Virus record (IMG/VR): IMGVR_UViG_2648501802_000002
Direction: 5' to 3' (one strand)
Source of the DNA: a virus
Lineage: Duplodnaviria > Heunggongvirae > Uroviricota > Caudoviricetes
Length of the DNA: 64,000 nucleotides
Part shown: one piece after another, positions 6,468-49,834 of the stretch
Layout: every line of letters begins with the position of its first letter
Numbering within the stretch: position 1 is the stretch's first letter
Notes under the pieces: generated by a model
The model's input: the letters and a program-made list of their open reading frames with translations, nothing else
Databases searched by the model: none
Told to the model about the DNA's origin: nothing
Program-made: the position numbers and the translations under genes

Positions 6468-9110
6468 TTATGCGTATTGTTGGATGACGGCCAGAACGTC
6501 CGCCACGTTGTGTTTTGTCTCGATAATCCACCAGTTACCCGGGAAATCGCTGTTCTTCGCCTTCGCTGGCAGCCAGCGAGCGCCGAATTTCGCCTTGATT
6601 GCGTCTTTCGCACGGAAAAGAACGCCTTTCATGCCTGAGGCTTCCTGAAGCCCAAATACCTCGCCAGCGGCGAATTTTGGTGCGTACATCATCTTCAGGT
6701 CGGCGGTGGATACGCGATAATTCAGACCTAGAGACTGAGCTATGCTGGTGGCATCACCCTGTATTGATGATAACTCTTCTTGTTTCTCGTTTCTGGCGGC
6801 AATCTCTTCCTCCGTGATGTTGCCAAGGGCCAGGTTTATCCGATCAGCGTCGGCCTGTTTCTCTTCATCGGTGCGCCCGGCAAGAACCGTGTTAATTCTC
6901 TGCAATATCTCCACATGATTCTTGCGCATGCTGAGCAATTCCGGCGTAACCTCGTTAAGATCCACCAGCCCAAGGATGGCAAGGTCGGAAAACATTGATA
7001 CCAGGTTGTAGGTCATGCGATAGCTGAGTTGACCATAGGCTGATGGCAACTTCACCGCATCCATTTGATAGGCATCCATAAATTTAGAGCCGTCGTTTAC
7101 GACATCCGCTATTGCAGGTGTGATTTTCCCTGTGGTGGCGGCCTCCCTGATTGCTGTTACCCACGATTGAGTCAGCGCGGCGACTGCATGATTCAGATTG
7201 GCTTCCCGTTCTGCTGCGATGCGCGCGCTTGCTGCGTCCATTGCCTGCTTGATCTCGGCTTTATTGCTGTAAATGCCAATGGTGCCAAACTGTGCTGTGG
7301 TGATCTCATAATCTGACGCCCGGAACTCATTGGTACCGAAAATGGCATTGGTGACTTCAAGTTCAGAATCCCCGTTACGAGTAGCCCCCTGGCTTGTTTT
7401 TTCCGGCATTCTGGCGATCGCATCCGCTATTTTCTCCTGAATTGCTTCAGGGGATAGCGTATCTCCGTATGACGCGATTACATCGCCATAATTGGAGCCA
7501 AACAATTCAACCAGGAATGTTTCTGCCGAACGGATCTGGCGGTTATTCCCTTCCGACATCATACCAAGCACCCATTTTGCAATTGACGACTTCAGCGCGA
7601 CGTCACGGCGATCCGGGTAAACCGCATGCTTCAGTGGGTCCGTATAGGTACCAACAAAATCAATGCTATAGCCTGACTCTGTAGTCTGAACGCCGTATGA
7701 GTCAGTGATTTTGATCATGCCGCGCTGCTGGAAACGGTAGAAATCGTCACAGGAAATGATGTCGTTAATCCCGGCGATGGAGACGCCGCCACTGATTTTC
7801 TGCATAACAGCATCTTCATCGGGAGTTACATCAACCTGTTTATCCAGCGTCTTCACATCCCAGTTACCCGATTTGGTACCTTTGAAGGTAAAGATAATCT
7901 CCACGTCTGCGCGCAGGCTGTCGAAGTCCAGCGACTTAATGCGAACGATATCACCGGCACAATCGTAGTATTGGCCTACACGCCATGAGCGATCGCCGAT
8001 AATAAGGAACTCACTCGCATGGTTAACCAGGTCAGGATCAACATCCAGAATGCCTTTATTTATTGCATCCTCCACCAGCGGGCGCAGGCGTTTGATATCC
8101 GTCGCGGCCTTCTGAGTACGGTTCAATAATTTCTCATAGCGGGAGATGGCTTGAGAGATATTAGCCTTGCGCTGAATGGCGCTTTTCAACGACGCGCGAT
8201 ACTGTGCTAACAACGTACGGTCTGTGTGATGGACGCTACCCCAGCGGGCTTTCCAGTCTGCGTTATCAGCTGCTTTGGCCATTACCGCCTGTTTGAATTT
8301 GGCGACGTCGGCGGTGGTCTTTTCAAGTTCCGCTTTGCTTCGCTCTAATTCAGCGGTAAGCACCTCCACATCCTCACCAGCTGCGTGCTGCGCCTTGATG
8401 TAGTTCTGAAGGTCGATAGTAGCCTGTTCTTTCTGGCGAGCGCGTTGCGCGGCTTTCGCCTTATCCATTTGAACCTGCATCATTGCCAGACGTTCGCCAT
8501 CATCCTTAGCGGTATACATCTGCATTTCGATCATATCGTTGGCGTCGGCGTTCTCCATTTCTGACTTATCTGAACGGAGGATATCGGAGATCCAACCTGC
8601 TTTACGCTTCAGCGTCTTCAGTCGGTATTCATCGAAAGAACCCTTGCCGCAGTAGTAGTGAACGCGAACGCTTGCACGGTTGGAACCAACTCGGGCACCG
8701 CGACCGTTACGCTGTGCGATACTGGCTGGTGTCCATGGCAACGTCAGATGATGGATGTCAGTCGTTCCTCGATGCAGGTTGATACCCACCTCTGCCTTTT
8801 TGTTGCAGATGATGATCGGAGTCCGGCCCTCCTGGAAGTCGGCTGCAATCTTTTCCAGACCGCCCAACGACATTTCATTTTGCTGCGCGATATAGGCGTC
8901 ATACAGAGCTATTTGCTCGTTGTATTTCGCTATCTGTGCATCTGTTGGTTCATCCGGTAACTCTTTCGGCGGTTTAACCGCTTTCAGTTTCTTACCGGTT
9001 TTACCTGCCTCGGCAACCGTCTGAGCATTCAGGATCCCCACCTTTGAAGGTTCAAGGTTAAGAGCATTGCAGATAATGCGCTTGAGCTTCTGGTGTTGCG
9101 TTTTTTTCAT
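6468..9110 (-). CDS. darB: DarB-like protein, C-terminal piece: helicase C-terminal domain and long tail
   Basis: 880-aa ORF with helicase motif VI-like segment (HHLTLPWTPASIAQRNGRGARVG); contiguous with the two upstream pieces if two single-base indels are corrected. Confidence 0.6.
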   Translation of the reverse strand: MKKTQHQKLKRIICNALNLEPSKVGILNAQTVAEAGKTGKKLKAVKPPKELPDEPTDAQIAKYNEQIALYDAYIAQQNEMSLGGLEKIAADFQEGRTPIIICNKKAEVGINLHRGTTDIHHLTLPWTPASIAQRNGRGARVGSNRASVRVHYYCGKGSFDEYRLKTLKRKAGWISDILRSDKSEMENADANDMIEMQMYTAKDDGERLAMMQVQMDKAKAAQRARQKEQATIDLQNYIKAQHAAGEDVEVLTAELERSKAELEKTTADVAKFKQAVMAKAADNADWKARWGSVHHTDRTLLAQYRASLKSAIQRKANISQAISRYEKLLNRTQKAATDIKRLRPLVEDAINKGILDVDPDLVNHASEFLIIGDRSWRVGQYYDCAGDIVRIKSLDFDSLRADVEIIFTFKGTKSGNWDVKTLDKQVDVTPDEDAVMQKISGGVSIAGINDIISCDDFYRFQQRGMIKITDSYGVQTTESGYSIDFVGTYTDPLKHAVYPDRRDVALKSSIAKWVLGMMSEGNNRQIRSAETFLVELFGSNYGDVIASYGDTLSPEAIQEKIADAIARMPEKTSQGATRNGDSELEVTNAIFGTNEFRASDYEITTAQFGTIGIYSNKAEIKQAMDAASARIAAEREANLNHAVAALTQSWVTAIREAATTGKITPAIADVVNDGSKFMDAYQMDAVKLPSAYGQLSYRMTYNLVSMFSDLAILGLVDLNEVTPELLSMRKNHVEILQRINTVLAGRTDEEKQADADRINLALGNITEEEIAARNEKQEELSSIQGDATSIAQSLGLNYRVSTADLKMMYAPKFAAGEVFGLQEASGMKGVLFRAKDAIKAKFGARWLPAKAKNSDFPGNWWIIETKHNVADVLAVIQQYA

Positions 9111-9657
9111 CGGTGAAGATGATTTGCTTACCTTCTGGGAAAAACTCCTTCAGCGTGGCAATCAGCTTCGCGTATTTGGGCGTAACGGGGTGAGTTACGG
9201 TCTGTTCGTCAATGCCAAACTTGGCCAGGCGCTTATTCACTTCCTGCTCAAATGCTTCCGGTACCTGCAACTGAATAAACTCGCCCTTATCTATCAGGGA
9301 GTATTGCGATTGCTGCGTGATTGAATCATCACTGTCGTCGTCTTCGCTGGTGGCTTGTTTGGGCAAACTGTCCGCCAGCTGCTGCACCGCATCGGCGTAC
9401 TCCGGCAGGAAACGATAGGTGATCCGGCGATAGTACAGGTCCATGTCAGTACATACGCGGTCCATATCCCTGATTATTGAGAAGATCGGACGGGCTTTCT
9501 CGTGCTCAATCACGCCGTCTTCATTGACCGAGGTCATTACGCCATTGTTGGCTTTGGCCGCCGCTTCCGCCTGCTGACGCAATTCTTCATACGCCGCCAG
9601 TTGTTCTTCAGTAAGTGGTGCATCCTGCTGGTGTTCGTCCAGCTCCGGGATCTCCAC
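9058..9657 (-). CDS. darB: DarB-like protein, middle piece (linker into helicase C-terminal domain)
   Basis: 199-aa ORF; open frame extends upstream to about 9738; ends ...KQIIFTDEK at a T7/A7 run (9101-9107) where the frame switches into the downstream piece. Confidence 0.45.
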   Translation of the reverse strand: MEIPELDEHQQDAPLTEEQLAAYEELRQQAEAAAKANNGVMTSVNEDGVIEHEKARPIFSIIRDMDRVCTDMDLYYRRITYRFLPEYADAVQQLADSLPKQATSEDDDSDDSITQQSQYSLIDKGEFIQLQVPEAFEQEVNKRLAKFGIDEQTVTHPVTPKYAKLIATLKEFFPEGKQIIFTDEKNATPEAQAHYLQCS

Positions 9658-9721
9658 GGTATCCTTAACGTCTTCCGCCGTTTTAAGCGTTACCCAGCGA
9701 TGGAATATACCGCGCAGCGCA

Positions 9722-11287
9722 TCAACCCGACAATTTCGCTATAGGACCGCGACCAGGATTACCAAAGCGGTCAATCTCTGCCTGCAAACGGGATACCAGA
9801 GAAAGGCGCTGCTGTTCGATTTGTTCAGCACTATGCCCGGCGGCCTTCATATCCTGATATTCAATTAACATCCGGCCAATCATCGCCCCGCGATACAAGC
9901 GTTCACGGTATTTTTCAGGCTGGCTGTTAATCCAGTCCACCAGCTGCACCATATCGTCGCTGATTGATGTGGTGTACTTATCGCGGACATTTGCCATCTG
10001 GGTAAATGTCATGCCGAGACGGCCTTCTGTTGTAGTCAGGTTACGCTGAAGAGCCTCCCAGCTATCCGCGCCATAACTGGCAGCATCGATCTTAAGTTCC
10101 TTCCCGGCATCAGCTTCAATCCAGCGACCACCAGCATATTTTTGCCATACGCCATTAATCAGGCGCATTTCCCCTTCACCAACAACGTCTGCGGTCGGTG
10201 ACGGTTCAGCCATATCGAGCAAAGACCAGTCGATACGGCTTTCGAAACGATGAATCAGCTTCGCTTTAAGAGCCTGGTTATCAATCTGACCGTCGGCACG
10301 AACCTCAATACGCCCCTGGAAGCCCTTTTCCTGGGTGCCATGAACAAACCGGCGGCCATCCTTTTCAAACCACTTGCCAGAAATAAACGTTGGCCAAAGC
10401 ACATTTGCCGATTCAAGAGTGCTTTCATCCACCAGGGGGATTTTCTCAGCCATCTCTGCCGGATGTTTGCGCATCAGCACCACATCAACGACTGTACTGG
10501 TCCCGTTTGCGTCAAAAGTACCGGTAGGCAAGCGGTGAGCGCCAAGAAATTCAGCTTTACGGGATAAGCGCAGGCGTAACCGCTTCATGTTTGAACCTGA
10601 AACAATGGACGGCGGCACAATCACGCACATGAATCCGCCTGGCTTTATCTTGTCCAGCATGCGGAGCATGAAGTAAGAACCCATGTCCGTTTCTTCTGCG
10701 TAAGGCTTATCGATGTTGCGTGTGTTATCACGACCGCCGAACGGAACGTTACCCACAACATGGTCGAATGAATCGTTAGGCGTGCTTATAGCCAGCTGTT
10801 CGAACGGGGAAATCTGTACGCTGTCTTCCGGGTGTAACAACTGGTTTATACGACCGGAAACACTGCTGATCTCAGTCGCGGTCATCACCGTACCAACCGG
10901 TTTTGTCTCATTAAAAACGCCGGTTCCCGCCGATGGTTCCAGAGTGTTACCTACGTCCGCGCCGTAGAGCTTCATGATCTCCCAGACACCTTCAGCGATC
11001 GGCTTTGGTGTGTAATATTCGGAGACGGACCCGCCAATGCCGCCTTCACCGGTGTACCCAGCCAGGATCTGGCGCTGTTCATCTGTCAGTGTCGCGCCGT
11101 CCACCAGCGAATTAAGCAAATCTATCGCCTTCTGATTCGCCTCCCGGCGCAGTCGGTCATAGCTTTTGCCTTCCACCTTTTCCACGCCGTATTTAATCGG
11201 CGCTCGGTGAGATGTTATTGCCCTAATGTATTTCAATATTTCGCTGACACTTGAACAGCAAAACACCCCCATAAATAGCTTGTTCAT
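9722..11287 (-). CDS. darB: DarB-like protein, N-terminal piece: N6-adenine DNA methyltransferase domain
   Basis: 521-aa ORF with amino-MTase motifs (YYTPKPIAEGVWEIM; VVGNVPFGG); reading frame continues into the next piece after a 1-nt shift near 9722-9738. Confidence 0.6.
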   Translation of the reverse strand: MNKLFMGVFCCSSVSEILKYIRAITSHRAPIKYGVEKVEGKSYDRLRREANQKAIDLLNSLVDGATLTDEQRQILAGYTGEGGIGGSVSEYYTPKPIAEGVWEIMKLYGADVGNTLEPSAGTGVFNETKPVGTVMTATEISSVSGRINQLLHPEDSVQISPFEQLAISTPNDSFDHVVGNVPFGGRDNTRNIDKPYAEETDMGSYFMLRMLDKIKPGGFMCVIVPPSIVSGSNMKRLRLRLSRKAEFLGAHRLPTGTFDANGTSTVVDVVLMRKHPAEMAEKIPLVDESTLESANVLWPTFISGKWFEKDGRRFVHGTQEKGFQGRIEVRADGQIDNQALKAKLIHRFESRIDWSLLDMAEPSPTADVVGEGEMRLINGVWQKYAGGRWIEADAGKELKIDAASYGADSWEALQRNLTTTEGRLGMTFTQMANVRDKYTTSISDDMVQLVDWINSQPEKYRERLYRGAMIGRMLIEYQDMKAAGHSAEQIEQQRLSLVSRLQAEIDRFGNPGRGPIAKLSG

Positions 11288-11353
11288 TGGTAATCCTTAA
11301 CAAGTGACTAGTGTTAAATTCCGTTCAAACACGATGCGAATTATTCTAATTAA

Positions 11354-13084
<1,731 letters not shown>

Positions 13085-14340
13085 ACGGCAAACATTCCCA
13101 ATTCACAGAGTCCGACCTAAACCACATGAAGCGGCTTAGGAATTACAGACTCTCCAAGGGCTAACACTGCCAGCCCGGCAGCTTTTATATTACGGGCCGC
13201 GTTAATATCACGATCATGCTCTGCGCCACATTCCGGGCAGTGCCATTTACGAATATTAAGAGGCATTTTTTGCATGGTGAAGCCGCAACTGCTGCAACGT
13301 TTGGAAGAAGGGAAATACTGGTCGATAGCGACAATGCTACGTCCACCCCATTCTCCTTTGTACTGGAGTTGGCGTACAAGTTCGCTCCAGCCTGCGTCAG
13401 CTATTGCTTTAGACAGCTTCGGGTTACGGATCATGTTTTTCACTTTAAGGGATTCGACGCAAACAACTTGGTTTTCGTTAATCAGTTTGCGGGACAACTT
13501 ATGCAGGTTATCCATCCGACAATCGACTATTCTCGCGTGGAGGCGGGCAACCTTTAAACGTGCTTTGGCGCGGTTCTTTGAGCCTTTTTGTTTCTTGCTC
13601 AATCTGCGCTGTAACACTGCTAATCGCTTCGCGTATTTAGCGTTGTGTCGAGGATTGCCAGTTTTAAAACCGGTATCGGTGACGAACAAATCTTTTAAAC
13701 CAATATCAATGCCGACCGTGGAAACGGTGATCGGCAGTGATACAGGCTCAAACTCGCAGAGACAGGATACAAAATATCGTCCGGCAGCATCCCTGGTGAT
13801 AGTGACAGTGGATGGAGCAGACGGCAACGGACGGCTCCAGCGAACATCTAACGGCTCTTTGCTCTTTGCCATGTACAGCTTGCCGTCACGGTATTTAAAT
13901 GCGCTGGCAGTTAGTTCTGCGGCCTGTTTATGCCGCTTGCTCTTAAAAACTGGGTATGCAGCACGCCCGGCGAAAAAGTTAGCAAAAGCCGTTTGTTGGT
14001 GGCGCAGAGACTGCTGGAGGGGGACGCAGGAAACGTCATTCAGCCAAGCGAATTCTGGTTCTTTTTTCAGTGCCGTTAATTTGGCGCTGGCTTGTGCATA
14101 GCCGACCCTCTCATGGCGTGCGTAGTACGCATCGGTGCGCCAGCGAAGGAGGCTGTTATAGACAAAACGCACACACCCAAAAGTCCGGGCTAATAGCTCG
14201 GTTTGTTCGGGAGTTGGATAGAATCGATATTTATAGGCACGCTTCATGTTCTATATAATACATTGAAACTAATGAGTATATAAATGAATACACGGACGAA
14301 AATGTTATCAAAGCCAATATACCAACAGACATTAGGTAAG
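13085..14340 (-). mobile_element. IS200/IS605-family insertion sequence (tnpB-only, IS1341-like); ends approximate
   Basis: Single TnpB ORF without tnpA, inserted between the prt-like and pro-like genes; element boundaries not mapped, taken as the flanking intergenic space. Confidence 0.4.
13117..14247 (-). CDS. tnpB: TnpB (IS200/IS605 OrfB) RuvC-like RNA-guided endonuclease
   Basis: 376-aa ORF; N-terminus MKRAYKYRFYPTPEQ typical of OrfB; C-terminal zinc finger CSSCGF...CPECGAEHDRDINAARNI. Confidence 0.8.
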   Translation of the reverse strand: MKRAYKYRFYPTPEQTELLARTFGCVRFVYNSLLRWRTDAYYARHERVGYAQASAKLTALKKEPEFAWLNDVSCVPLQQSLRHQQTAFANFFAGRAAYPVFKSKRHKQAAELTASAFKYRDGKLYMAKSKEPLDVRWSRPLPSAPSTVTITRDAAGRYFVSCLCEFEPVSLPITVSTVGIDIGLKDLFVTDTGFKTGNPRHNAKYAKRLAVLQRRLSKKQKGSKNRAKARLKVARLHARIVDCRMDNLHKLSRKLINENQVVCVESLKVKNMIRNPKLSKAIADAGWSELVRQLQYKGEWGGRSIVAIDQYFPSSKRCSSCGFTMQKMPLNIRKWHCPECGAEHDRDINAARNIKAAGLAVLALGESVIPKPLHVV

Positions 14341-14359
14341 GTAGCTGGAGGGCAATATA

Positions 14360-15379
14360 ATGACTGATGTTTTGAAAACGGTCACTGACCGCTTTTGTCT
14401 CTATAGCAATGCTCGAAAAGGTCGCCAGAACGGGCGACAGTATGTATTAAGCGCGGTTAAGACCATGCTTGAAAGCAAGGAAACTCAGGAAGGTTTACGC
14501 CTTGGAGAGCTTTTCGGCTATTACGGTCACGGTCGCCGACAGCTGACCGGCAAACTGGAAGTACCAGAAACCAGCGTAATCATGGTGGAAGGTCGCCCGG
14601 TCGTAATCGACAATGTTCCAGCGTGCCGCACAGTGGCTATATCCGTTGACGACAACGGCATCGTTACCCATACACAGGAAATTCTTAACACAGAGCCGGG
14701 TAAAATTGTCGCCGCGATGATCGAAAGCCGAGCTGGTGGCTGGAGCTGGGCCACTGGCGGGCGTGAGTCCGGGAAAATCGCTGTAACCACCAGCTTCCAT
14801 GGTGTGGATTATGTGACAACGCCGAACTATATCAGTCTGGATCATCCTGCCAGCGCCGGAATGTTTGAAAGCGCGGATTCTAAATCTTTACTGGCAGAGT
14901 CCCTGGCGGCGCATGGGTACTCCGACGAGTCAGTGCAGGCCGTTATATCCCATTACGGCAAAATGGCTGAACTGGAAATGATGGTGGAGGCGACAGAGCG
15001 TACGGCAGAACTGGAAACTGCACTACTCGAAAGCCAGGGCCGCCACCTCGAAGCAATGGCCAAGATCGCAGATGCTGAAGCGCGAATCGCTTTGCTGGAG
15101 GAAACAGCGGGTATCCGCGACGATGTGCTGGCAGCAATGCAAGACGAACTGGATAACCTCCCGATCTTCGTCTCCGCCGCCCAAAAAGACGCATTCCGCC
15201 TCAAAGAACCTGGTGATGCAAAAATCGTTGCCACACTTTTCGAATCTCTGATCAAAGTTGGCGCACGCAACTTGCCTGTCACCAAGAAAATTAAGGAGGT
15301 TCCGCAAGCGGCTAACGTCCAGGCACCGCGTGAGACAAGCATCATCACGTTTAATAATTCAATCAATCCGTTTAAATAA
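14360..15379 (+). CDS. pro: Head-processing protease/scaffold-like protein (pro-like by position)
   Basis: 339-aa ORF; globular N-terminal half followed by helical acidic C-terminal half; position after prt as in P1. Confidence 0.35.
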   Translation: MTDVLKTVTDRFCLYSNARKGRQNGRQYVLSAVKTMLESKETQEGLRLGELFGYYGHGRRQLTGKLEVPETSVIMVEGRPVVIDNVPACRTVAISVDDNGIVTHTQEILNTEPGKIVAAMIESRAGGWSWATGGRESGKIAVTTSFHGVDYVTTPNYISLDHPASAGMFESADSKSLLAESLAAHGYSDESVQAVISHYGKMAELEMMVEATERTAELETALLESQGRHLEAMAKIADAEARIALLEETAGIRDDVLAAMQDELDNLPIFVSAAQKDAFRLKEPGDAKIVATLFESLIKVGARNLPVTKKIKEVPQAANVQAPRETSIITFNNSINPFK

Positions 15380-15392
15380 CCACCAAAAATAA

Positions 15393-15417
15393 CCCCGGCA
15401 GCTGCCGGGGTTCTCGT
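15393..15417 (+). terminator. Candidate intrinsic terminator after pro-like gene
   Basis: Perfect palindrome CCCCGGCAGCTGCCGGGG followed by TTCTCGTT. Confidence 0.4.
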
Positions 15418-15423
15418 TAACTA

Positions 15424-15678
15424 TTATCGCCTTCGTGCCATATATTTGCGCACCGCGCGGCGTGGACAATCTGAAGCGGTTTCTTTCTGCTGCATCAATC
15501 TCGCAGCCATGCTCAAAAATGTCAGGCACAGCCGAAGCCCGGCATACAATAGCGGTTCCAGTGGCCACGTCTCATTGAGCACATATACCGCCATGAAAAT
15601 CGAGTCAAAAACTATCGCCGCCAGCGATAACTTCATTGTCGAAAGTCGGCGGAGCTGCCGGAGTTTATTCATTGACAA
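15424..15678 (-). CDS. Small hydrophobic protein (possible membrane protein) downstream of lyz
   Basis: 84-aa ORF with hydrophobic stretch LSLAAIVFDSIFMAVYVL; overlaps lyz stop; coding status uncertain. Confidence 0.25.
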   Translation of the reverse strand: MSMNKLRQLRRLSTMKLSLAAIVFDSIFMAVYVLNETWPLEPLLYAGLRLCLTFLSMAARLMQQKETASDCPRRAVRKYMARRR

Positions 15679-16222
15679 GCCCCGTCAGGCAAAGCTGGCG
15701 TTCTTTTTCACGGCGAATCTTTAAACCTCGCAGGGGCACGCCGTTACTGTTCACGAAATCAGGGAGATGGTTACACATATTCACCCATTCCCCTTTCTGC
15801 GCCCACTTGTGGATGGACGTTTCTACTCGCATGCCTCGCGCTTTGCTGTAGTAGGTCCGTAAGCTATTGCATCCCATATTGAATGCCGCGCTTGTCATTG
15901 CACTGAAGGCATTATCGGGCATGTCTTTGCCCCGGAAGTGCTGATTAATACAGCGTTCAGCGATCAGGATATTCTTTTCCCAATCAGCGGCGATTTGCTG
16001 GTCGGTTTTTCGCACACCCGGCGTTACCCCGTGTGTATTACCGATCCCGTCAGTCCATACCCCCGCCGGGCACATGTATGGATCACGTCGGCAACCTTCA
16101 GCGTTACCAATCTGCTCAAGCCCCGCCTGGTTGGTTCGCACATTGCCATTACCCATCACGATGGTAATCATCACCGCGATAGCGCAAATTGCACCGCCTC
16201 CTGCGGCTGTTTTTCCCTTCAT
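15665..16222 (-). CDS. lyz: P1 Lyz-type SAR endolysin (glycoside hydrolase family 24 lysozyme)
   Basis: 185-aa product from internal ATG: MKGKTAAGGGAICAIAVMITIVMGNGNVRT (signal-arrest-release domain) then ...NAEGCRRDPYMCPAGVWTDGIGNTHGV; matches my memory of P1 Lyz including the three regulatory cysteines. Confidence 0.8.
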   Translation of the reverse strand: MKGKTAAGGGAICAIAVMITIVMGNGNVRTNQAGLEQIGNAEGCRRDPYMCPAGVWTDGIGNTHGVTPGVRKTDQQIAADWEKNILIAERCINQHFRGKDMPDNAFSAMTSAAFNMGCNSLRTYYSKARGMRVETSIHKWAQKGEWVNMCNHLPDFVNSNGVPLRGLKIRREKERQLCLTGLVNE

Positions 16223-16372: not shown

Positions 16373-16391
16373 ATTTTATTAGGTAAGATAA

Positions 16392-38702: not shown

Positions 38703-41700
38703 TTACCTCTCGCTTTTCTGCAATAAAAAAGGCGTCATTTCTGACGCCCGTATTGGGGTTATAAAATTCAGCTGATACTGATGCCTGCGGTGGCTTTCTT
38801 CATCACCACAACCAGCAAATCGCTGATACTTGCTGTGGGATACCAGCCATTTACCCACCATGCTGATACCGAAAACTCCAGTGTCATTACCACTGCCTGC
38901 AGGCATATCAATAACACCCGTGTATATCAGAGTATTATCCAGAGCCGTTCGGTTATAAATTTCAGCCCCCGTTTTTTCTCCTATCAGACGGCATGACGAA
39001 TAAGTATCGCTATTTCTCCGTTCATCGTCTGGCACCGCTGAAAGCCACCGCCGGATAACAATTTGCCGGTCAAACGGCTGATCGTCATAAACCCTGACGG
39101 TAATGGTCCCTGATGGCCACCGTTCCGGTGCACGGGAGTCACGGGGGAAAGCTTTGCCCACTGTTTTAACGAGATCGCCTTCAATCTGGTTCGCGGACAG
39201 TTTTCCCAGAACCCGGCAGTTCTCGTTAATCGTGACGTTGTTGAGCGTCCCGGAGTTCGCATTCACGTTACCGCTGATATCGGCATTTTTTGCCGTCAGC
39301 CGCCCGTCCGGTGTCAGGGAAAATGCCGGAGGATTACCGCCGCTGGTAATGGTGGGAGCCGTCAGATATTTCAGGAACACTTCATTCATAAATATCTGAT
39401 CGCCCTGACCAACAAACATCGGCTTTGTGTTGCCATTCGCAGGATTAATCATCGCAATCCTGTCCGCCGCCAGCAGCACCTGACTCTGCATACCGTCAGG
39501 GGTATTCTCAATACCGGCACCAATACCCGCGATATAAAGGCGTCCGTCCTGCATCTGCTGCAGCTTCACAGCCCACATGCTGTTCAGGTTATTATTTGTA
39601 TCAACCTGAACCTTCTGTATCTGCTGAATTGCCGCACTCTGGTCTTCCAGTTTCTTATTGACGGTCTGCGTGATTTCATTGCTGACATCCGTAATGGACG
39701 TCCTGATTTCAGCCAGGTCAGGCGCAAGCTGACCGTTATCAATCTGCGTCCACAGCTCCTGAGCCAGATGGCTTTTCCCTATCTCTCCTTTGAAAAAATC
39801 CAGATAGCCGGATGCATCATCACTCGGCTGGCCAACAGCCTCCACAAATGCCGATTTGCCAACGGTGTTCACACTGCGGATGTAAAAATAATAATCATGG
39901 CCCGGTTTGATATTGATACTGGCGGCTATCCAGTACAGCGCCGTGCCAAGATAGCGGGCTGTGGTTTCAACCTGCCTGATATCGGTAATCCGCTTTTCCG
40001 AGAACCAGAACTCAAACTGTACCGTCGGGTCATAAATGGCAAGATGCGGCGTGGCGGTTATCTGAAAATAGCCCGGCGTCAGCTCAATCCTCGACGGTGC
40101 TGCCGGTGCGGCAATCCGGAACGATACCGACGCCGCATCGCCCTGCTGCCCCCACGCATTTACCGCCCGGACTGTCAGCCTGTAGTTCCCCAGCGCCAGT
40201 TGCGTGAAGCGGTATGTGGTTTCCGTCGTCCGGGCCGTGCTGACCAGCCGCTCACTGCCGTCGTCCGCTGTTACGGTCAGACGGAGCAGGAAGCTCACGC
40301 CCTTCACCACCTTCGGTGTGTCCCATCGCGCCAGCACCTGATATTCCCCGCTGTCTGCAGTGACTTCTGCGGTCAGGTGCTGCACCGCTGGCGGCGTGAC
40401 ACCATTCACCGTGCCACTCTGTTCGCCGTCAAAGTGCGCCCCGTTATCCACGATGGCCTCTTTTTCCGGCACATGCTGCACGGCGGTGATGGCATACGTG
40501 CCGTCGTCGTTCTCACGGATACTCACGCAGCGGAACAGGCGCTGGCGCAGCGTCGGCAGCTTCAGCCCCCATACGCTGTATTCAGCAACACCCTCAGGAA
40601 CACGGCTCACTTTTACCTTCACGCCGTCGTTGACGGACTGAACCTCCACGCTGACCGGATTGCCACTTCCGTCAACCAGGCTTATCAGCGTGGTACCGGA
40701 GGATGGCAGCGTGATTTCACGGTCGAGCGTCAGCGTCCGGGTCTGGCTGTTCACCGCCAGCACACGACCACCGGTGCTGATACCGGCATAGTCATCATCG
40801 CAGATTTCAATAACATCGCCCGGTACATGGCGAAGCCCTTCTGCGCCGACGCTGAAATCCACGGTCTGCGTCTCCAGCAGCTCCGTTTTAATCAGCCACA
40901 GCCCGGCGCGGTGTGCCTGCCCCCGGCTGGTACAGCCAAAGGCATCCATCTTCGTAACATTACGACCGTAACGGGCAATGGCCTGCGTATCTTCAACAAG
41001 CTCTGTCGCCGTCTCCCAGCCGTTGTCCGGGTCAATCCAGTTCACCTCAACGGCATTATGGCGGTCTTTCAGGGCGCTGAAGCTGTAGCGGAACGGCGCG
41101 CCATCATCCGGCATCACCACATTACTGCGGTTATAGGTCCACGCCTTATCCGACGGTCGGTCCTGCACGAACGTCAGCGTCTGCCCGTTCCATACCGGCA
41201 TACAGCGCATCGCCGAGCAGAAATCACTGAGAACGTCCCACGCCTTGCGCTGTGTGGTCAGGTACGCATTACAGGTGATGCGCGGCTCCGTGCCGCCAAA
41301 GCCGTCCGGCACTGACTGGTCGCAGTACTGGCCGATGACATACAGCGCCCATTTGTCCACATCCGCCGCACCAAGACGTTTCCCCATGCCGTAGCGCGGA
41401 TGGGTCAGCATATCCCACAGACACCAGGCCATGTTGTTGCTGTATGCTGGCTTAAACGTTCCGTCCCAGATACCGCTGTATTGTCGCGTCTGCGGGTTAT
41501 AGTTCGACGGCACCTGCAGAATGCGCCCGCGAAGATGATAATTACGACTCACCTGCTGGCTGCCGAACTGCTCCGAGTCCACCTGTACGCCGACCAGTGC
41601 CGTGTTCGGGTAGCACTGTTTCACATCGATGATTTCGGTGTATGACGACCAGAGCGTTTTGTTCTGCAGCTGGTCTGTGGTGCTGTCCGGCGTCATCCTG

Positions 41701-42245
41701 CGCATCCGGATATTAAACGGGCGCGGCGGCAGGTTATCCACCACCACCGAGGCCAGATACTGCGAGGTGGTTTTGCCTTTAATGGTGATGTCTTTTTCCG
41801 TCACCCAGCCACCGTTACGCTGTATCTGAACCAGCAGGCGGACTTCCGACGGATTCCGGTCCCCCTTTGAGGTGGTTTCCACCAGTGCCTGCACACCGAA
41901 GGTAAAGCGCAGACGGTCGATGTTTGCAGACGTGATGGTCCGGGTAATCGGCGTGTCGTACTTCACTTCCGTACCCAGCACCGTCTCGGAGCCGGAGGAT
42001 TCAAACCCCTCCGGCGGTGTCTGCTCCTGCTCACCGGCACGGAACACCACCGTGACACCGGAGATGTTGGTATTCCCCTCAGTGTCCAGCACCGGCGTAC
42101 TGTTCAGCAGCACGCTTTTTAATCCATCCACCGGACCTTCAACCGGCCCTTCGCTGATGGCATCGATCACACTCAGCAACTGCGTGGACTTCAGGTTGTC
42201 CTTCGCTTCGCGCGGGGTATGCCCCTTACTGCTTCCTTTACTCAT
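38703..42245 (-). CDS. J: Tail tip host-specificity protein J
   Basis: 1180-aa ORF following I; lambda J-like throughout. Confidence 0.85.
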
Positions 42246-42305
42246 TCCTCACGCTCCATAAATGACAAAACCGCCCGCAGGCGGTTTCACATAAAACATT
42301 TTGCA

Positions 42306-42977
42306 TCAGCGACCAATCACCACAACCTGACCACCGTCCCCTTCGTCTGCCGTGCTGATCTCCTGAGAAACCACGCGTGACCCCACGCGCATTTCCCCGT
42401 ACAGAACAGGCAGAACATTGCCCTGGGCAACCATGTTATCCAGTGAGGAGAAATAGGTGTTCTGCTTACCGTTATCCGTTGTCTGTGTACGGGGAGTTCT
42501 GGCTTTCGGTGCCAGCATCTGCGCCACACCACCGAGGACCATACTGGCACCGAGAGAAAACAGGATGCCGGTCATACCACCGGCCCCAATGGCTGCCCCC
42601 CATGCTGCAAGGGTGGCTCCGGCGGTAAAGAATGATCCGGCAATGGCGGCAGCCCCCAGGACAATCTGGAATACGCCACCTGACTTGGCCCCGGCGACTC
42701 TGGGAACAATATGAATCACAGCGCCATCAGGCAGAGTCTCATGTAACTGCGCCGTTAACCCGGACGTGCTGACGTCCCGCCCGGCAATCCGTACCTGATA
42801 CCAGCCGTCGCTCAGTTTCTGACGAAACGCCGGGAGCTGTGTGGCCAGTGCCCGGATGGCTTCAGCCCCCGTTTTCACACGAAGGTCGATGCGGCGACCA
42901 AATCGTTGTAAATCCCCGTAAAGGCAGATGCGCGCCATGCCCGGTGACGCCAGAGGGAGTGTGTGCGTCGCTGCCAT
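42306..42977 (-). CDS. I: Tail assembly protein I
   Basis: 223-aa ORF; lambda I-like, Gly/Ala-rich hydrophobic centre. Confidence 0.8.
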   Translation of the reverse strand: MAATHTLPLASPGMARICLYGDLQRFGRRIDLRVKTGAEAIRALATQLPAFRQKLSDGWYQVRIAGRDVSTSGLTAQLHETLPDGAVIHIVPRVAGAKSGGVFQIVLGAAAIAGSFFTAGATLAAWGAAIGAGGMTGILFSLGASMVLGGVAQMLAPKARTPRTQTTDNGKQNTYFSSLDNMVAQGNVLPVLYGEMRVGSRVVSQEISTADEGDGGQVVVIGR

Positions 42978-43619
42978 TTGTCGGTGTACCTCTCTCGTTT
43001 GCTCAGTTGTTCAGGAATATGGTGCAGCAGCTCACCGTCACCACAGTAAATGGCGGCATGATTCGGCACCGATGAACCAAAACAGCACAGCAGCACATCG
43101 CCCGGCTGCGCCGCTGACAACGGCACCTGATACAGCCCTGTGGCCTCCAGATTATCCAGATAGAGATTCTGACCGTGACGCCACCAGTCATCCCCGCGAT
43201 GAAAATCCGGCATCTCAATCCCCGCCAGATGATAAGCATCCCGGAACAGCGTGTAACAGTCCGTCACCCCCGTGCTCAAAGCGCCGCCCGGTGAGATGCG
43301 GCACACAGCGGAACTTATGAATCGCCCCCCGGCAGACCAGCCACCACGGCAAATCACTCTGCACCTGCAGCCGCCGGTCAGCCTCACTCAGCCAGGGCAG
43401 ACCACCGGGGTGGCTGTGGACCAGCGCCACAATCTCACCCTGCATTTCTGCCTGCAGCCAGTCCTCCGGAGCCATCCGGAAATAATCCTCCGGCTCACCG
43501 GAAATATTCACGCCGGGAAAATATCTTTCCCCCTCCGGCGTGCTTACCACGAAGCCGCACGACTCCGCTGGCGCACATCGCCGGGCGTGCGCCAGAATCG
43601 CTGATTCTGTCTGTGTCAT
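42875..43619 (-). CDS. K: Tail assembly protein K (MPN/JAB + NlpC/P60); frame broken at a C5/G5 run as sequenced
   Basis: Upstream ORF MTQTESAILAHARRCAPAESCGFVVSTPEGERYF...HSHPGG...TGRRFEH switches frame at 43267-43271 into GVTDCYTLFRDAYHLAGIEMPDF...NHAAIYCGDGELLHH; together this is near-identical to lambda K. Confidence 0.8.
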
Positions 43620-43624
43620 GGGAT

Positions 43625-44323
43625 TTACTGCGAAAGTTTGTTAATGGAAAGGAAGCCGCCAAAGTTGCCGACGTTATTGCGAAACTTACAGCCACTCAGG
43701 CATTTGCTGCATTTATCCTTCGTGATATCGGACGTCGGCTGGTCATATTCATCCGCGACCGCCGGACCGCTATAACCGCACTCATCGCCGCGATAGGTCC
43801 AGGTGCAGGTGTTGGCCAGCATGATACGTCCCGGAAAAACAGCGCCATCCGTTTCAGTCGGCGTGGACAGTACAAAAGAGGCACTGACCGCGCTCAGTTC
43901 GCTGCACTGCTCGATGCGCCAGCGGCTGATCACCTCCTGCTCCGGATCGGCTTCGCTGTTTCCGTTGACGAAGTTCACCGCATCCAGAAAGCGGGCGTAA
44001 ACCTTACGCCGGACCACCGTTCCGCCGACCAGACTCTGCAGATCTTCCGCCATCCCGGTGATCATGCCGTGCAGGTTAGAGACCGTCAGTGTCGGACGGG
44101 CAGCACTGCCCTTGCCGTTCATCTCAAATCCACTCCCCTGAATGGGATAGGCCTGATACTGCCGACTCTGCCAGGTGACAGACTCACCTTTTTCGTTCTG
44201 CTCATTACAGAAAAAGTAGCGATCCCCGTCTACCTCTGTCAGGTCGATTTCCCAGAGCACCACGCTGGCAGACTGCTCCGCACGAATGCATTCATTCAGC
44301 GTTTCCTGTTGTATGTCCTGCAT
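43625..44323 (-). CDS. L: Minor tail protein L
   Basis: 232-aa ORF; lambda L-like with C-terminal Cys cluster. Confidence 0.85.
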   Translation of the reverse strand: MQDIQQETLNECIRAEQSASVVLWEIDLTEVDGDRYFFCNEQNEKGESVTWQSRQYQAYPIQGSGFEMNGKGSAARPTLTVSNLHGMITGMAEDLQSLVGGTVVRRKVYARFLDAVNFVNGNSEADPEQEVISRWRIEQCSELSAVSASFVLSTPTETDGAVFPGRIMLANTCTWTYRGDECGYSGPAVADEYDQPTSDITKDKCSKCLSGCKFRNNVGNFGGFLSINKLSQ

Positions 44324-44661
44324 CAGATCACCACTTCGTCAAACTGACACGAAAAATCGGTATAGGTGATATGTTCTGTCGCTGACCACGTTCGACACAC
44401 CACTCTGATTTTTCTGTTAATACCCGGCGGGCGCCAAAAAAAAGATTTATAGCCTTCATGCCGGGCTAAAAATTTTTCAAATGAATCACGTTCATTCGCC
44501 TCAACTTTGAAATCACAGGTGAAAACGCGCAGAGAATGATTAAGTCCATTTGGACTTCGTTGCTCATAACCATCGCCAAATCTTACAGTTTTTATCGATG
44601 GTTTATTTTCTGTTTTCATTCCATCCTCTGGTAACCAGTGAAATTCTTCCGTATTAGCCAC
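44323..44661 (-). CDS. M: Minor tail protein M
   Basis: 112-aa ORF between H and L, lambda M-like size and position. Confidence 0.8.
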
Positions 44662-47600
44662 TTAACATTCCCCCATCACGTCGCATATTTAACAGATTGC
44701 CCTGCACCCGCTGATCAACCATCCCCATAAGTGCTTTTATTGCCTGAGGGCCAATCTCTCCATTCTGGCCGTCATTTTGAATAGTGATTTGGTATACAGG
44801 GGCATAGGTAATATCTCCGCCTCCATTACCACTTTTACTATTAATAGCTCTGACACCAAGAGAACCATCGGAAGTTCGTGTTAATGGCATAATGGCTTCC
44901 GGACCAGCCTCACCAAAAACACCAGCCCCTCTTGCAAAAGCAAAAAATTGCGGGGAATCATAAATACCGTTCGAATACGTGTTCAATGACGGAGACTCAT
45001 AAACACCGCCCTTTGCATTCGGAATAAATTTACTAATAGCACTCCCGATAGTTCCTAAAATCCCCCCAGAAGAACTGTTACTAATGCTGTCGAAAATCCC
45101 AGTAATTGAAGCCTTTAATGCTATTCGACTAAGATCCGAAATCACGGAAGTAGCGAAAGAACGAAAATTTGCCTTGCCTGTCGTGACAAAATCACCCAGC
45201 GCATCGGTCATTCCATCAAACATCTGAGTCGTGGTTGATTTTATCTGCTCACTGATATCCTTAGTGTCATCCAGCCAGTTATTGAATCCCTGGGAGGCAC
45301 CACTAACCCAGTCTCCTGCCTGAATATCGAGCTGCTCGTTTTTCTGTCTGACAATTTCTTTTTCTCGTTCCAGAGCATCATTCAGAGCCTGCATTTTCTC
45401 CTGAAAAACATGATTTGACATCCCACGGGATTTATCTGCATAGTCACGTTCAAGTTGCAGACGCTGATTGTTATATTCACGTTCAATCCGCAGTAATTCC
45501 TGCTGGCGTTGCTGATTTTTATCGCCAACCCCATAACCAGCAATCTGAATATCATACCCCTGTTGACGATTATCAATCGAAGCCTGCAATGAATCACGCC
45601 ATGCAGCTATTTCGGCGGATTCCTTGATTAGCCTGTTATTTTTTTCAATCGCAACATTTTTCTCCATCAACGCGGTTATTTCTTCCAGGTGTAAGAGAAG
45701 CGATTTCTGATCCTGGGTTAATTTCGATGACGGTCGTGACTCCAGGTCGGCAATCTGCTGACGCCACTTAACCAGTTCCTGTTCAGAGGAACTTAATTTA
45801 ACGGTTAATTCAGTTTGTGAACTTAGTAACGCATTCTGTTGATTCAGATGATCAATCATTCGTTGGGCAGCATCATCCGAATAACCTTTCGCCTTTGGTT
45901 GCTTTGGATCTTTATAACGCTCATTTATTTGAGCGATAAAATTATTATATTCTTCCTTTGAATACTGACTCTTTAGCTTTTCCAGTTTTGCAAGTTCACT
46001 AGCTCTCTGCTGCTCCCGGGTCTGATATTGTTTTGAAAAGGCATCTGCTCTCTGTCTGAGTTCAATTCCTTCCTGTTGTCGCTTGTTGTAATCGTTTATT
46101 GATGAATTTAGGACGTCCTGAGCAATTTTTTCTGCTTGAAGTACGCCCAATTGCTGCTTTAATCGTGCCAGCCTTTTATTTTGAGCTCCGCCATCTCCAA
46201 TGCCACCTAACCCGAAAACTCCGGGTCGGGTATTTTTTTCTATTTCATCAATTTGACGGAGAACATCTGAGATTTTTTGATCAAGGGAGGCCTCACGGCC
46301 AATGTCCAGCATGGAATCCCATGCCCATTTTGCGGAGTCTGCGACAGCTTTCCATGCAGTCTCAAGATAACCAAGATTTTCTTTAATCTGGTTGGTGCGC
46401 TGGATCATTGAGGATGAGTATTCTTCTGTCGCAATGCGGGCGGCCTCCTGCTGGTTCCCTTCATCCTGTAGCGCCTTAATCTGGTTATAAGTCGCAAGTG
46501 TCAGAAAATGGTACTGATCATTAAGTTTTGATATGGCACTGACAGGATCCTTTGCAATTTCATTGAAGTCATTAACCAGTTGTTCGGTTGATATTCCTGT
46601 TACTTCGCTCGTTTTTACTATCGCTGTCGTCACTTGCTCCAGCGAACTGCTCGCTACCTTTCCCGAACGCACAAGCTGATTTAATACTGCCGCCGCAGCA
46701 CCAGTTGTCGAATCAGCCGCATTCCCGGCACGTTGAGCTATATCGCCCAATTGCCCGCTGGTTGTCCCCAACTGATTTCCGGTAAGAATAAGAGATTTAT
46801 TAAATTCGTCCTGCTCCTGAGAGCCTTTATAGTAAGCCAGTCCTAAGACCCCAACGGCTGCTGCGGCCAGGGTAAAAGGATTAATTAATCCCAGCACATA
46901 AGAACCTACACCTTTGATCGCCGGGCCAATCCCACCGAACATATCTTTTAGCTGGCCGCCCTGCTGCATTAACACCATAAATGGCGACTGACCAGTGGAC
47001 AACCCAACAACAATATCCGTCATTTGTGCAGGCAACATGCGCATAGCAAAAGCCGTTTGTTTTGCCGACATTCCGGTTTTGCTTAATTGTGATTGAGTAA
47101 CCTCAAGCTCACTCCGCATAGCACGAAGTTTTCCAGAAAGCTCCTCATACATTTCAGGAGAAAGCATCCCCTTAGCTTTTGCTTCATTGAGCTGTTTCTG
47201 TTGTTCTACCAGACGATTAAAAGCAGTTCCGACAGGATCAAGTTGAGCAATCAGACGTTGCAAAGCAACAACCTGTTCATCATGCGCTTTTGCTGCTTCT
47301 CGCTCTGCCTGAGCCTCTCCGGTAAGCTCTCGCCGTGTTTCCTGTATTTTTCGGCTATAATTCTCAAACTGAGAACCATTTATTTTCCCGGATGCAAACG
47401 CAGCATTAAGTTCATCATGCTGTTGTTCAAGATTTCTTAGCGCCGCAGCCAGAGGGTCGATCTTGTCCAGCATTCTTTGAAAGGCCTGAGCCTGCGCTTC
47501 CTGCTGGGCGGCAGCAAGTTTTCCGGCCTTCTCGGCTTCTCTCTGCGCTTGCGCAACCCCGCTCAATTCCTCTGTGGTTTCATTAAGTTTACGGACAAGA

Positions 47601-47887
47601 AATTCATATTCTTCTTTATCAATAAGCCCTTTATCGAAAAATTTCTTTAATTCAGAATAGCGTCGACCGACAGTATCAATTGCGGCACCAACTGGATCAA
47701 TAGCTGCTTTTAATTTTGCGAGCGCGTTCTTCTCATCTTCTGTTGCCTTAGTCACTTTCCCTGCGCTATTTGCAGCAGTTTCCCCAGCCTGCGTCATTTT
47801 GACTAATGAGGAGGTCAGATTGTCAGCATTATTTTTCGCTCCAGTGCTATCAATAATTATTGCGAGACGCGAGGTTTGCTCTGCCAT
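44654..47887 (-). CDS. H: Tail tape measure protein H
   Basis: 1077-aa coiled-coil-rich ORF downstream of G/T. Confidence 0.85.
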
Positions 47888-47902
47888 TTATTAAAACTCC
47901 TG

Positions 47903-47932
47903 ACAACAAAAAACCCACCGCGAAGTGGGTTT
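47903..47932 (-). terminator. Candidate intrinsic terminator between G/T and H
   Basis: Minus-strand hairpin AAACCCAC-TTCGCG-GTGGGTTT followed by TTTGTTG. Confidence 0.35.
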
Positions 47933-48052
47933 CAGGCGACATAATAGTAGATATAGCGATTACGAGGCCACGCAATGCTTTTCTCCAGGAGCATCATCGA
48001 TTTAATTAAAGACACCATCACATCTCTGTAACAGAGTGTACGTAATTAACAA

Positions 48053-48373
48053 CTACACACACTGCTCCTGAAAATACTGGTCATCCAGTGCAAAGATCAC
48101 TGCTTCAAATTCATCGCGCTCAATCAATACCGGATGAGTGGCTAAATATTCATTTATCTCTGTCAGAGATAAAGGCAAAGGCACCCCAGCCATTCCAGCA
48201 TAACGTCGGGCACGGGATATTACCGAATAGGCGTACAACAACTCCTTAAGCACCGGGTCTATTTCTGGTTCCGGTATCGGTGGCAACCTGAGTTTTTCTC
48301 GCTTCCATCTTGCCTTTTCCCCCCTTTCTCCCCCGAACTCCGATAACCACCGCTGGGCAGCTATGGCTTTTTT
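48053..48373 (-). CDS. T: Tail assembly chaperone T-extension (expressed as G-T fusion by -1 frameshift)
   Basis: -1 frame downstream of the slip site is open to 48053 (...KKAIAAQRWLSEF...PEPEIDPVLKELLYAYSV...); no independent start. Confidence 0.6.
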   Translation of the reverse strand, partial: KKAIAAQRWLSEFGGERGEKARWKREKLRLPPIPEPEIDPVLKELLYAYSVISRARRYAGMAGVPLPLSLTEINEYLATHPVLIERDEFEAVIFALDDQYFQEQCV

Positions 48374-48756
48374 ATCGTATCCTGCTTCTGCTGCTCTTTA
48401 CCCTGGGCGATGCTGGCTGCTTCTGCAAGGATCTGCCAGTACAACTCTGGATTCTGCTTAAGCAGCGCGATCCCTCGTTCTGCCGTATATTCCAGTGCAA
48501 CCTCAACACCATTAACCAGTTCACCAACCCCTTTCCAGTCTTTCAGCAGATAACGAGCGGCATTATCAATGAGTAAATCATCAACAGAATCCACCTCGGA
48601 AACCTTTGAAATATCAAACTCCTTCGTTCCGACGTGCAAACTGGCATCCATTTTCTCAATGTGGCGACGGATTAATGCATTACGGGAGCGATACTGATCG
48701 TTATCGCTGCTTGCCACCAACAGTTTTAACCCGTCTACAGGTTTTAAGTCCTTCAT
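48361..48756 (-). CDS. G: Tail assembly chaperone G
   Basis: Start set at internal ATG (MKDLKPVDG...) preceded by GGAGAA; ends ...KEQQKQDTIKKP immediately after the slippery site. Confidence 0.65.
   Translation of the reverse strand: MKDLKPVDGLKLLVASSDNDQYRSRNALIRRHIEKMDASLHVGTKEFDISKVSEVDSVDDLLIDNAARYLLKDWKGVGELVNGVEVALEYTAERGIALLKQNPELYWQILAEAASIAQGKEQQKQDTIKKP
48367..48373 (-). other. Programmed -1 ribosomal frameshift slippery heptamer A-AAA-AAG (G/T)
   Basis: Minus strand ...GAT ACG ATA AAA AAG CCA TAG: heptamer AAAAAAG three codons before the G stop; -1 frame continues open. Confidence 0.55.
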
Positions 48757-48883
48757 TGGCGTAAACCAGCGTTCTCCACCAATGATAATTTTCTGATTAA
48801 GAATAAACATCCATAACCTCATTCAATGCGTCCCCCTGTAGGGCAGTACCACAGGAGGAATAACGGAAAATCAACTAATCGCC

Positions 48884-49834
48884 TCAGCACTGGCTTTTGC
48901 GATCACGGCAGCCGGGGAATTTTTTTTTTCTGGTTATCGTAGGTGCTTCATCTGCTGCGGTAATGCTCAATTGAACCTGGATAATGTCGCTATTACCCCC
49001 ATCAGGCCATTCACCTGACACCTGAACCTTCGGGAAACTGAAAGTGTATGCCCCCTCTCCATTCGAAAGCGTGAAGCTGAACGGAACTGTTTCTCCAGTC
49101 AGTGTTTTACTCCAGATTTCCCACGCGGCTTTAGACCATGAAAGCGTCACCGTACCGGACGGTGTAAAAGTAGTCGGAATATTTGCTCCTGCATAAGGCG
49201 AGCCAGTCCCGATACAACGCTGTGTCTGGAGTTTGTTATCGAACTGAATATCAAAACTGTCGATACAAAAACCGTTACCTCCGGCAACACCATTCAGGCT
49301 TACTGCTGAAACCTCCTTAAACGAATAACGTAGCTTTCCTGCACTATCCACAGGTTCGCCTTTGATAAAATTCGTATCATCGGCCTTTGATTCCCAGTCC
49401 AGTCCGGCAAAGGTTACGGTCGCTGTAATATCGCCGTCGTTAGGGATCTGCATTTTCCATGAGCCAACCTGCGCTCCTCTGACGACAGAGGCAATTCCGA
49501 CATCGGACGCATAGGTCGCCAGAGAAAATGTTATTCGCTCATTCCCCATTGTCAGAGAATCGCCTGACCATTCCGCGCCGAAACAGGATGCAAGAAAATC
49601 ATCATGTTGACCCCAGCGAAATTTGGTACCAACATCACCGCCGACATCCACAGTGCCAGGCGTCGCCCCCTGAGCCATCCGGGAGCCACCAATCTCATTA
49701 TTTTCGCCTTTATTATGGGTGGGTTTTACTCCCCAGCTTGTGCGTTTTAATAAACTCCAGTCACCACTTGCTGGCGTAGTGCCTGCAACCGTCTCCCGGA
49801 TAAATGCCGAGATAACCTTTGCACCTGAACTCAC
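48884..49834 (-). CDS. V: Major tail protein (V-like); 3' end probably shifted by an A10 run
   Basis: 316-aa ORF; A10 run at 48925-48934 near 3' end; with one fewer A the product would end ...SPAAVIAKASAEAIS rather than ...FPGCRDRKSQC. Confidence 0.7.
   Translation of the reverse strand: MSSGAKVISAFIRETVAGTTPASGDWSLLKRTSWGVKPTHNKGENNEIGGSRMAQGATPGTVDVGGDVGTKFRWGQHDDFLASCFGAEWSGDSLTMGNERITFSLATYASDVGIASVVRGAQVGSWKMQIPNDGDITATVTFAGLDWESKADDTNFIKGEPVDSAGKLRYSFKEVSAVSLNGVAGGNGFCIDSFDIQFDNKLQTQRCIGTGSPYAGANIPTTFTPSGTVTLSWSKAAWEIWSKTLTGETVPFSFTLSNGEGAYTFSFPKVQVSGEWPDGGNSDIIQVQLSITAADEAPTITRKKKFPGCRDRKSQC

Follow-up and report, generated by a model that had tools for sequence, protein, structure and literature searches.

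We analyzed a window of 64,000 nt of phage DNA in which several genes are interrupted by one-base frameshifts. We are highly confident that these frameshifts are consensus errors of an unpolished low-coverage PacBio CLR assembly and not mutations. Judged by sequence comparison, the broken phage genes have almost certainly not decayed, since a second assembly of the strain lineage reads them intact.

The window originates from the 4,998,910-bp "chromosome" of E. coli ST2747, and the link rests on its 316-aa tube protein, which corresponds to AHM48147.1 (locus tag CF59_13300), and on the length of the contig encoding it. This size is one of three given for ST2747 chromosomes by Xavier et al. 2014 (PMC3983296). 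According to that study, sequencing was performed on PacBio RS II with C2 chemistry at ~28x and without short reads; the HGAP assembly of ~14 scaffolds was map-ordered and then joined without gaps. An exact-sequence lookup of ten ORF products of the window recorded only the 316-aa tube protein and a truncated pmgB, in one contig each, which was that of the source genome. The main control was NZ_CP007394.1 (here referred to as the sibling), assembled independently in the same study from the same strain lineage. It lacks the darB and fibre region, and the comparison with it covers lom, K, tube, J and stf. The genome FDAARGOS_1279 (FDA-ARGOS), which is 99.9% identical, was used as second comparison sequence. 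The arrangement of the window had no match among 5,426 complete E. coli genomes.

From 2831 to 37565 the window is colinear with P1 2306-45247 at 94-98% identity, as in P1-like phage-plasmids. Unlike in P1, prt and pro are separated by an IS200/IS605-type TnpB insertion, and its presence in the sibling shows it to be real. Furthermore, a fixed fibre module that includes an acetyltransferase gene takes the place of cin and the C-segment. The lambdoid part shares its site and its gene order (ompN-ydfK-pinR-stf-lom-J-I-K-L-M-H-tube-head-trkG) with the cryptic lambdoid prophages of the Rac site. The lesions and junctions are located as follows:

6468-11287, minus strand: darB of the P1-like phage-plasmid, with one +1 run insertion and an internal deletion of 1,949 bp
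9101-9107, minus strand: T7 run in darB (A7 on the coding strand), +1 compared to T6, 620 bp from the 9725 junction
9725/9726: blunt deletion junction in darB, with loss of P1 13726-15674 and without end repeats
27661-28552, minus strand: distal tail-fibre gene, a 296-aa ORF restored by removing one T
28504-28510, minus strand: T7 run in the fibre gene, +1 compared to T6, 267 bp from the 28771 junction
28771/28772: fibre-locus junction, at which the N-terminal part of a P1-type S runs out of frame into the middle portion of a small gene of the fibre module
37565/37566: P1/lambdoid join, interior of the P1-like pmgB blunt-joined to that of the lambdoid stf
37620-39055, minus strand: error-dense stretch beside the join, with +T at 37620 (stf), -C at 38055, +C at 38588 (lom) and a scrambled J C-terminus
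38588-38590, minus strand: frameshift in lom, CCC (GGG on the coding strand) compared to CC, +1
43267-43271, minus strand: frameshift in K (C40 peptidase), C5 compared to C4
48920-48929, minus strand: T10 run (coding strand A10) in the tube gene (48884-49834), ~50 nt ahead of its stop

The original prediction had listed six sites of one-base indels in runs. Five of them, namely the darB T7, the fibre T7, the K C5, the tube run of ten and lom, do carry one base more than every relative fetched. The lom insertion had been placed near 38578 and the tube run at 48925-48934, which is 5 off. The remaining site, a G3 near 9730 in darB, is not a one-base indel and coincides with the blunt junction of the 1,949-bp deletion. 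Removal of one base restores every ORF. With one base removed, 199 of 200 residues were identical in lom, 320 of 321 in the tube protein and all 248 in K when compared to FDAARGOS_1279, and the 12 stops in the C-terminal part of darB were reduced to the terminal one. Overall, the corrected lambdoid proteins were 99.5-100% identical to their counterparts in the intact prophage. The run in K was C4 in all four references (both sibling copies, FDAARGOS_1279 and CP159141).

The following had been overlooked: the additional base in stf at 37620, the missing base at 38055, the scrambled C-terminus of J and the blunt junctions at 28771/28772 and 37565/37566. In J, seven indel events and four mismatches were found within 38890-39055. 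All changes in the stretch 37620-39055 were private to the window, and the sibling agrees with FDAARGOS_1279 there.

The comparison with close relatives that had been suggested as a check was run on NZ_CP007394.1 and FDAARGOS_1279. The insertions in lom, K and tube were absent from both, which supports the original view of homopolymer sequencing errors leading to false pseudogenes. The extensively decayed prophage that had been proposed for the case of genuine mutations is refuted for the lambdoid part.

From 43057 to 64000 (20.9 kb) there was not a single mismatch between the window and the sibling. Every substitution of the window is also present in the sibling, six lineage SNPs in J are common to both, and the real indels compared to P1 are shared as well (T6 at 16241, a 6-bp deletion at 15434 and the TnpB insertion at 13069-14348). 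Since SNPs and real indels are reproduced, the sibling is a valid control. None of the frameshifts of the window was found in it, and its annotation shows lom, J, K and stf as intact genes; genuine pseudogenes are expected to be inherited by a clonal relative. The sibling carries its own, different set of private one-base indels. Wherever one of the two assemblies deviates, the other one matches FDAARGOS_1279. Additionally, the sibling contains two overlapping copies of a stretch of the prophage, which differ from each other by one-base indels only. Signs of neutral decay, be it nonsense changes or increased divergence, were not found: 15 mismatches separate 26.4 kb of the window from an intact prophage, and none of them creates a stop. 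These aligned assemblies show the lesions in lom, K, tube, J and stf to be erroneous. However, the isolated errors of the window are all insertions and those of the sibling almost all deletions, which counts against this reading.

The tube run deserves separate consideration. It was T10 in the window, T9 in one copy of the sibling (L014), T8 in the other (L013) and T9 in FDAARGOS_1279 and CP159141. Reading through T10 replaces only the last 16 residues by 12 (316 aa compared to 320), and to call the gene broken was overstated. Runs of nine A promote transcriptional slippage in E. coli, and three run lengths are recorded at this site, as might be expected if this or other runs served a programmed frameshift, transcriptional slippage or phase variation. 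However, the tails in the alternative frames comprise only 5 or 12 residues and are unconserved, some alleles interrupt the run (RKKAS, RKKCS), the three lengths stem from noisy-read assemblies of one strain lineage, and the other runs count just 2-6 bases in the correct sequence. Conservation of a slippery run together with that of a functional alternative-frame product was not found at the tube site, and a function of this kind is extremely unlikely. There is a slight chance that the A9 run is truly unstable, in which case the T8, T9 and T10 calls and the A8 variant of other public genomes would in part be due to real length heterogeneity or slippage (tube proteins of 320, 316 or 309 aa), and, separately, that the P1-like plasmid of ST2747 carries a real darB deletion.

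On the P1-like side, the window's darB is 98-99% identical to its counterparts in P1 and in plasmids, and its best match in IMG/VR reached 99.1% identity at most. The darB run was T6 in all five fetched references and in 65 of 66 IMG/VR contigs. For the fibre run, T6 (L008, L081) or AT5 (L009, L082) was found in four of four relatives. The sibling lacks these regions, and for both T7 runs we infer an error like the lambdoid ones. A T7 in darB is also present in one unrelated IMG/VR contig (L019), and the A8 variant of the tube run occurs in other deposited genomes (P0005). Both variants count against the error reading, and such runs may also vary in nature.

No repeats or microhomology were found at the three blunt junctions (9725, 28771 and 37565). 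Homologous recombination or Cin-mediated exchange is therefore disfavoured; the 28771 junction does not coincide with the crossover of a cix-like site but is located 8 bp outside this site. Neither RefSeq (E. coli records) nor IMG/VR contained a sequence that spans the darB deletion, and no record spanning the 28771 junction was found. In the sibling the prophage runs on through stf to pinR and ompN and the join at 37565 is not reproduced; most likely it represents a contig concatenation. Within stretches that are uninterrupted in the window, the P1 pieces of the sibling have equally blunt internal gaps (3246-13014 and 18120-18556), which means that gaps of this kind arise in the same pipeline. 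The two assemblies also have their junctions at different positions. We regard those at 9725 and 28771 as probable joins made during assembly.

The private indels were concentrated next to such ends. Between 37565 and 64000, 10 of the 12 indel events private to the window were located within 1.5 kb of the 37565 join. The 21 and 10 events private to the sibling were no further than 2.5 kb from the blunt ends of that assembly (window 43057 and 49158). The errors in K and tube count against the error reading, as the closest visible join is 5.7 and 11.4 kb away, respectively.

Genuine decay would mean that the insertions arose by real strand slippage and accumulated in defective prophages on which selection had been relaxed. 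Runs are a type of sequence prone to replication slippage, the darB T7 and the tube A8 recur in other public sequences, and the P1 side carries large lesions (the 1,949-bp deletion, the truncated pmgB and a truncated S). However, the sibling is only a few laboratory platings apart and shares all substitutions but none of the five checkable lesions. The absence of nonsense substitutions at 99.9% identity to an intact prophage and the clustering of the lesions at junctions that are not reproduced argue in the same direction, and 10 indel events in 1.5 kb near the join without a matching excess of clean substitutions are not biological. For lom, K, tube, J and stf decay is refuted by the comparison with the sibling sequence, and as an explanation for the insertions in general we regard it as very unlikely. 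Mutagenesis by nitrofurantoin during selection of the derivative was rejected as well, since only indels were found, these clustered at junctions, and the two copies of the sibling disagree.

A mixed case, with erroneous lambdoid frameshifts and a truly defective P1-like element (darB deletion, fibre-locus junction and perhaps both T7 runs), is unlikely but has to be taken seriously. The deletion and the T7 runs lie outside the coverage of the sibling, the deletion preserves colinearity and orientation, as expected of a real one, and P1-like plasmids with a damaged darB exist, e.g. with an internal stop in CH427. On the other hand, the equally blunt gaps in the P1 pieces of the sibling speak against it, both T7 runs are located at most 620 bp from a junction like the proven errors, and neither the 9725 nor the 28771 junction is present in any public record.

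If the frameshifts are consensus errors, thin read depth, chiefly in the last 1-2.5 kb of contigs, would have caused the consensus to miscount bases in runs, and scaffold joining would have produced blunt junctions that resemble deletions or phage fusions. The window would then consist of pieces of a P1-like phage-plasmid abutting a chromosomal Rac-site lambdoid prophage which is intact in reality. This resembles the residual homopolymer indels of PacBio CLR assemblies (RS II, C2, HGAP/Quiver), which are likewise one-base run changes private to an assembly, dense at contig ends, responsible for false pseudogenes and gone in an independent assembly; apart from the direction of the isolated errors mentioned above, nothing essential is different. 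Misjoined "finished" genomes with plasmid contigs in the chromosome share the blunt, homology-free junctions between P1-like plasmid and prophage at positions differing between two assemblies and the duplicated overlapping contig ends seen in the sibling, and we infer each individual join here. Cryptic Rac-site prophages with true pseudogenes differ from the present case, in which both the sibling and FDAARGOS_1279 carry intact tail genes and the apparent decay is not real.

The value of these results lies in caution only and not in new biology. In a genome deposited as "complete", there are pseudogenes and a P1-lambdoid fusion that are false, and probably false deletions as well; searching it for prophage decay, P1 integrated in the chromosome or phage chimeras would yield false positives.

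The window was composed of two parts. Positions 2831-37565 were colinear with phage P1 (NC_005856 2306-45247, ref to pmgB) at 94-98% identity, and P1-like E. coli plasmids were nearer to this part than P1 itself. Positions 37565-64000 represented a Rac-site lambdoid prophage with the gene order stf, lom, J, I, K, L, M, H, tube, head genes, terminase, trkG and lysis genes, sharing 99.89% identity with the chromosome of the E. coli genome FDAARGOS_1279. No sequence was common to both sides of the junction, and the arrangement was found in no complete E. coli RefSeq genome. The P1-like lineage lacked cin and the invertible C segment (window 25578-28771); its fibre module was fixed and included a gene for a serine acetyltransferase (26517-27080), as on plasmid NZ_CP083486.1. 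The distal fibre gene was mosaic: at the N-terminus it resembled a short, separate fibre gene of 48-kb and 96-kb plasmids, at the C-terminus the long S gene of NZ_CP083486.1.

Lesions and junctions in the window (genes on the minus strand; runs read on the given strand)
9101-9107, darB: T7; T6 in all five fetched references and 65 of 66 IMG/VR contigs
28504-28510, fibre gene: T7; T6 or AT5 in all four relatives
28771/28772: blunt junction truncating the P1-type S gene
37565/37566: blunt junction, pmgB interior to stf interior
37620, stf: +1
38055: one-base -1
38588-38590, lom: CCC; CC in relatives
38890-39055, J: C-terminus scrambled by seven indel events and four mismatches
43267-43271, K: C5; C4 in relatives
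48920-48929, tube gene: T10; T9 in relatives

The original prediction listed six run indels, and one-base insertions were real at five of these; the lesions at 28771, 37620, 38055 and 38890-39055 had not been listed. The indels proposed for both T7 runs and for the C5 run of K were borne out, as insertions. Without the extra base, K matched FDAARGOS_1279 at 248 of 248 residues, the fibre gene formed a 296-aa ORF and the C-terminal 1,084 codons of darB were open. Insertions were also confirmed in lom (199 of 200 residues identical after removal) and the tube gene (320 of 321), at positions about 10 and 5 bases, respectively, from those proposed. The tube gene was hardly broken, 12 residues standing in place of the last 16. 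The sixth site, a G3 run near 9730 in darB, was misread: a 1,949-bp deletion within darB has its blunt junction here. Among the 66 IMG/VR P1-like contigs only IMGVR_UViG_2645727715_000008 carried T7 in the darB run; it differed from the window by 5 gaps in 4 kb and may be another low-quality sequence.

The frameshifted 316-aa tube protein matched a single record in a 15-billion-protein collection, AHM48147.1 (CF59_13300). The ST2747 genomes were sequenced to a depth of about 28-fold on PacBio RS II (C2 chemistry) and assembled with HGAP (Xavier et al. 2014, PMC3983296), without short-read polishing (PMC3983296); the scaffolds, about 14 for the source of the window, were put in order by means of a map and joined without gaps. 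As the six genomes of that study comprise two parents plus derivatives of them made nitrofurantoin-resistant in vitro (PMC3983296), the three ST2747 genomes are near-isogenic. By a query across lineage-specific SNPs we found one sibling, NZ_CP007394.1 (RefSeq), in which the prophage occurred twice, as a pair of contig ends that overlap. The left copy (L013) comprised nifJ-ompN-pinR followed by stf, lom, J and K up to the mid-tube gene (window 37565-49158), with stf, lom, J, I, K, L and M annotated as intact. The right copy (L014) spanned window 43057-64000 with 23 one-base gaps and no mismatches. In this region (L014 22557-27366 and L013 23754-29100) a 6-kb stretch of the prophage from K to tube was duplicated, scrambled pieces of P1-like plasmid, about 37 kb in all, separated the copies, and many genes were annotated as frameshifted or incomplete. 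NZ_CP007394.1 is misassembled here.

Six J SNPs separating the window from FDAARGOS_1279 were common to the sibling, as were indels against P1 (T6 at 16241, a 6-bp deletion at 15434, a change at 14356) and a TnpB insertion of 1.28 kb that separates prt from pro. Real differences were therefore reproduced between the assemblies. None of the frameshifting indels of the window was present in the regions covered by the sibling, which equalled FDAARGOS_1279 at each. The comparison with close relatives suggested by the original prediction was run, and the sibling and FDAARGOS_1279 both lacked the lom, K and tube insertions. The sibling had 31 private indel events, deletions except one, and at all 31 the window equalled FDAARGOS_1279. 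The tube run was T10 in the window, T9 in L014, T8 in L013 and T9 in two unrelated clean genomes. Biology cannot account for two copies of a single-copy locus that differ from each other by about 30 indels yet by no substitution.

The TnpB insertion (13069-14348) held a 376-aa minus-strand ORF, annotated in the sibling as an InsQ/TnpB family RNA-guided endonuclease. It was absent from the other P1-like references aligned, and is real since both assemblies carry it.

Private indel events and their distance from blunt ends
Window 37565-64000: 12 events, 10 of them no more than 1.5 kb from the 37565 join
Sibling right copy L014: 21 events, all no more than 2.5 kb from its blunt end, at which K abuts P1-like ddrB (window 43057)
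Sibling left copy L013: 10 events, all no more than 2.3 kb from its blunt end, at which tube abuts P1-like parB (window 49158)

Thin coverage towards the ends of contigs would be expected to give such clustering.

The darB and fibre region, with both T7 runs, the 1,949-bp deletion and the 28771 junction, lies outside the sibling sequence. The T7 runs are located 620 bp (darB) and 267 bp (fibre) from blunt junctions, are private among all relatives save the one unrelated IMG/VR contig, and are of one kind with the proven errors; both are probably errors. The P1 pieces of the sibling, ordered unlike the window, covered window 108-3245, 13015-18119 and 18557-22108, separated by blunt gaps where the window runs unbroken. 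The pipeline therefore also makes false internal deletions, and we would lean towards an assembly join for the darB deletion.

Homopolymer sequencing error producing artefactual pseudogenes, the reading originally preferred, was right, the frameshifts being absent from the sibling where covered. Its alternative, an extensively decayed prophage, was refuted for the lambdoid genes by the same comparison. Nitrofurantoin mutagenesis cannot yield indels only, crowded at junctions and without substitutions. Nor was there support for the A9 run of the tube gene as a functional slippery site: alternative-frame tails were short and unconserved, and other tube alleles interrupt the run (RKKAS, RKKCS). 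An A8 variant exists in other deposited genomes, e.g. E. coli OW1E2 (protein P0005; 309 aa, ending RKKIPRLP), so the run may be naturally unstable too; this variant could reflect a natural slippage hotspot or recurrent sequencing error. In the reference genome CP159141 the "protein singed" gene (L003 19574-19968) is annotated as frameshifted at a place where the window ORF (51014-51409) is intact; the indel, one A, falls within a short run (window 51297). Frameshifts of this sort, false or real, are common in records of this prophage family.

The sibling lacked the pmgB-stf join, and P1-like pieces there adjoin K and the tube gene instead. Because the join positions differ between both assemblies, the P1/lambdoid joins are concatenation artefacts and not integrated P1. 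CP007393 was named as a chromosome with P1-like sequence in a paper on P1-like elements (PMC6906374). The original observation was largely right, and the frameshift feature is an artefact without biological interest, its sole value being a warning on this genome record. Chromosomally integrated P1 in the ST2747 records is not to be trusted.
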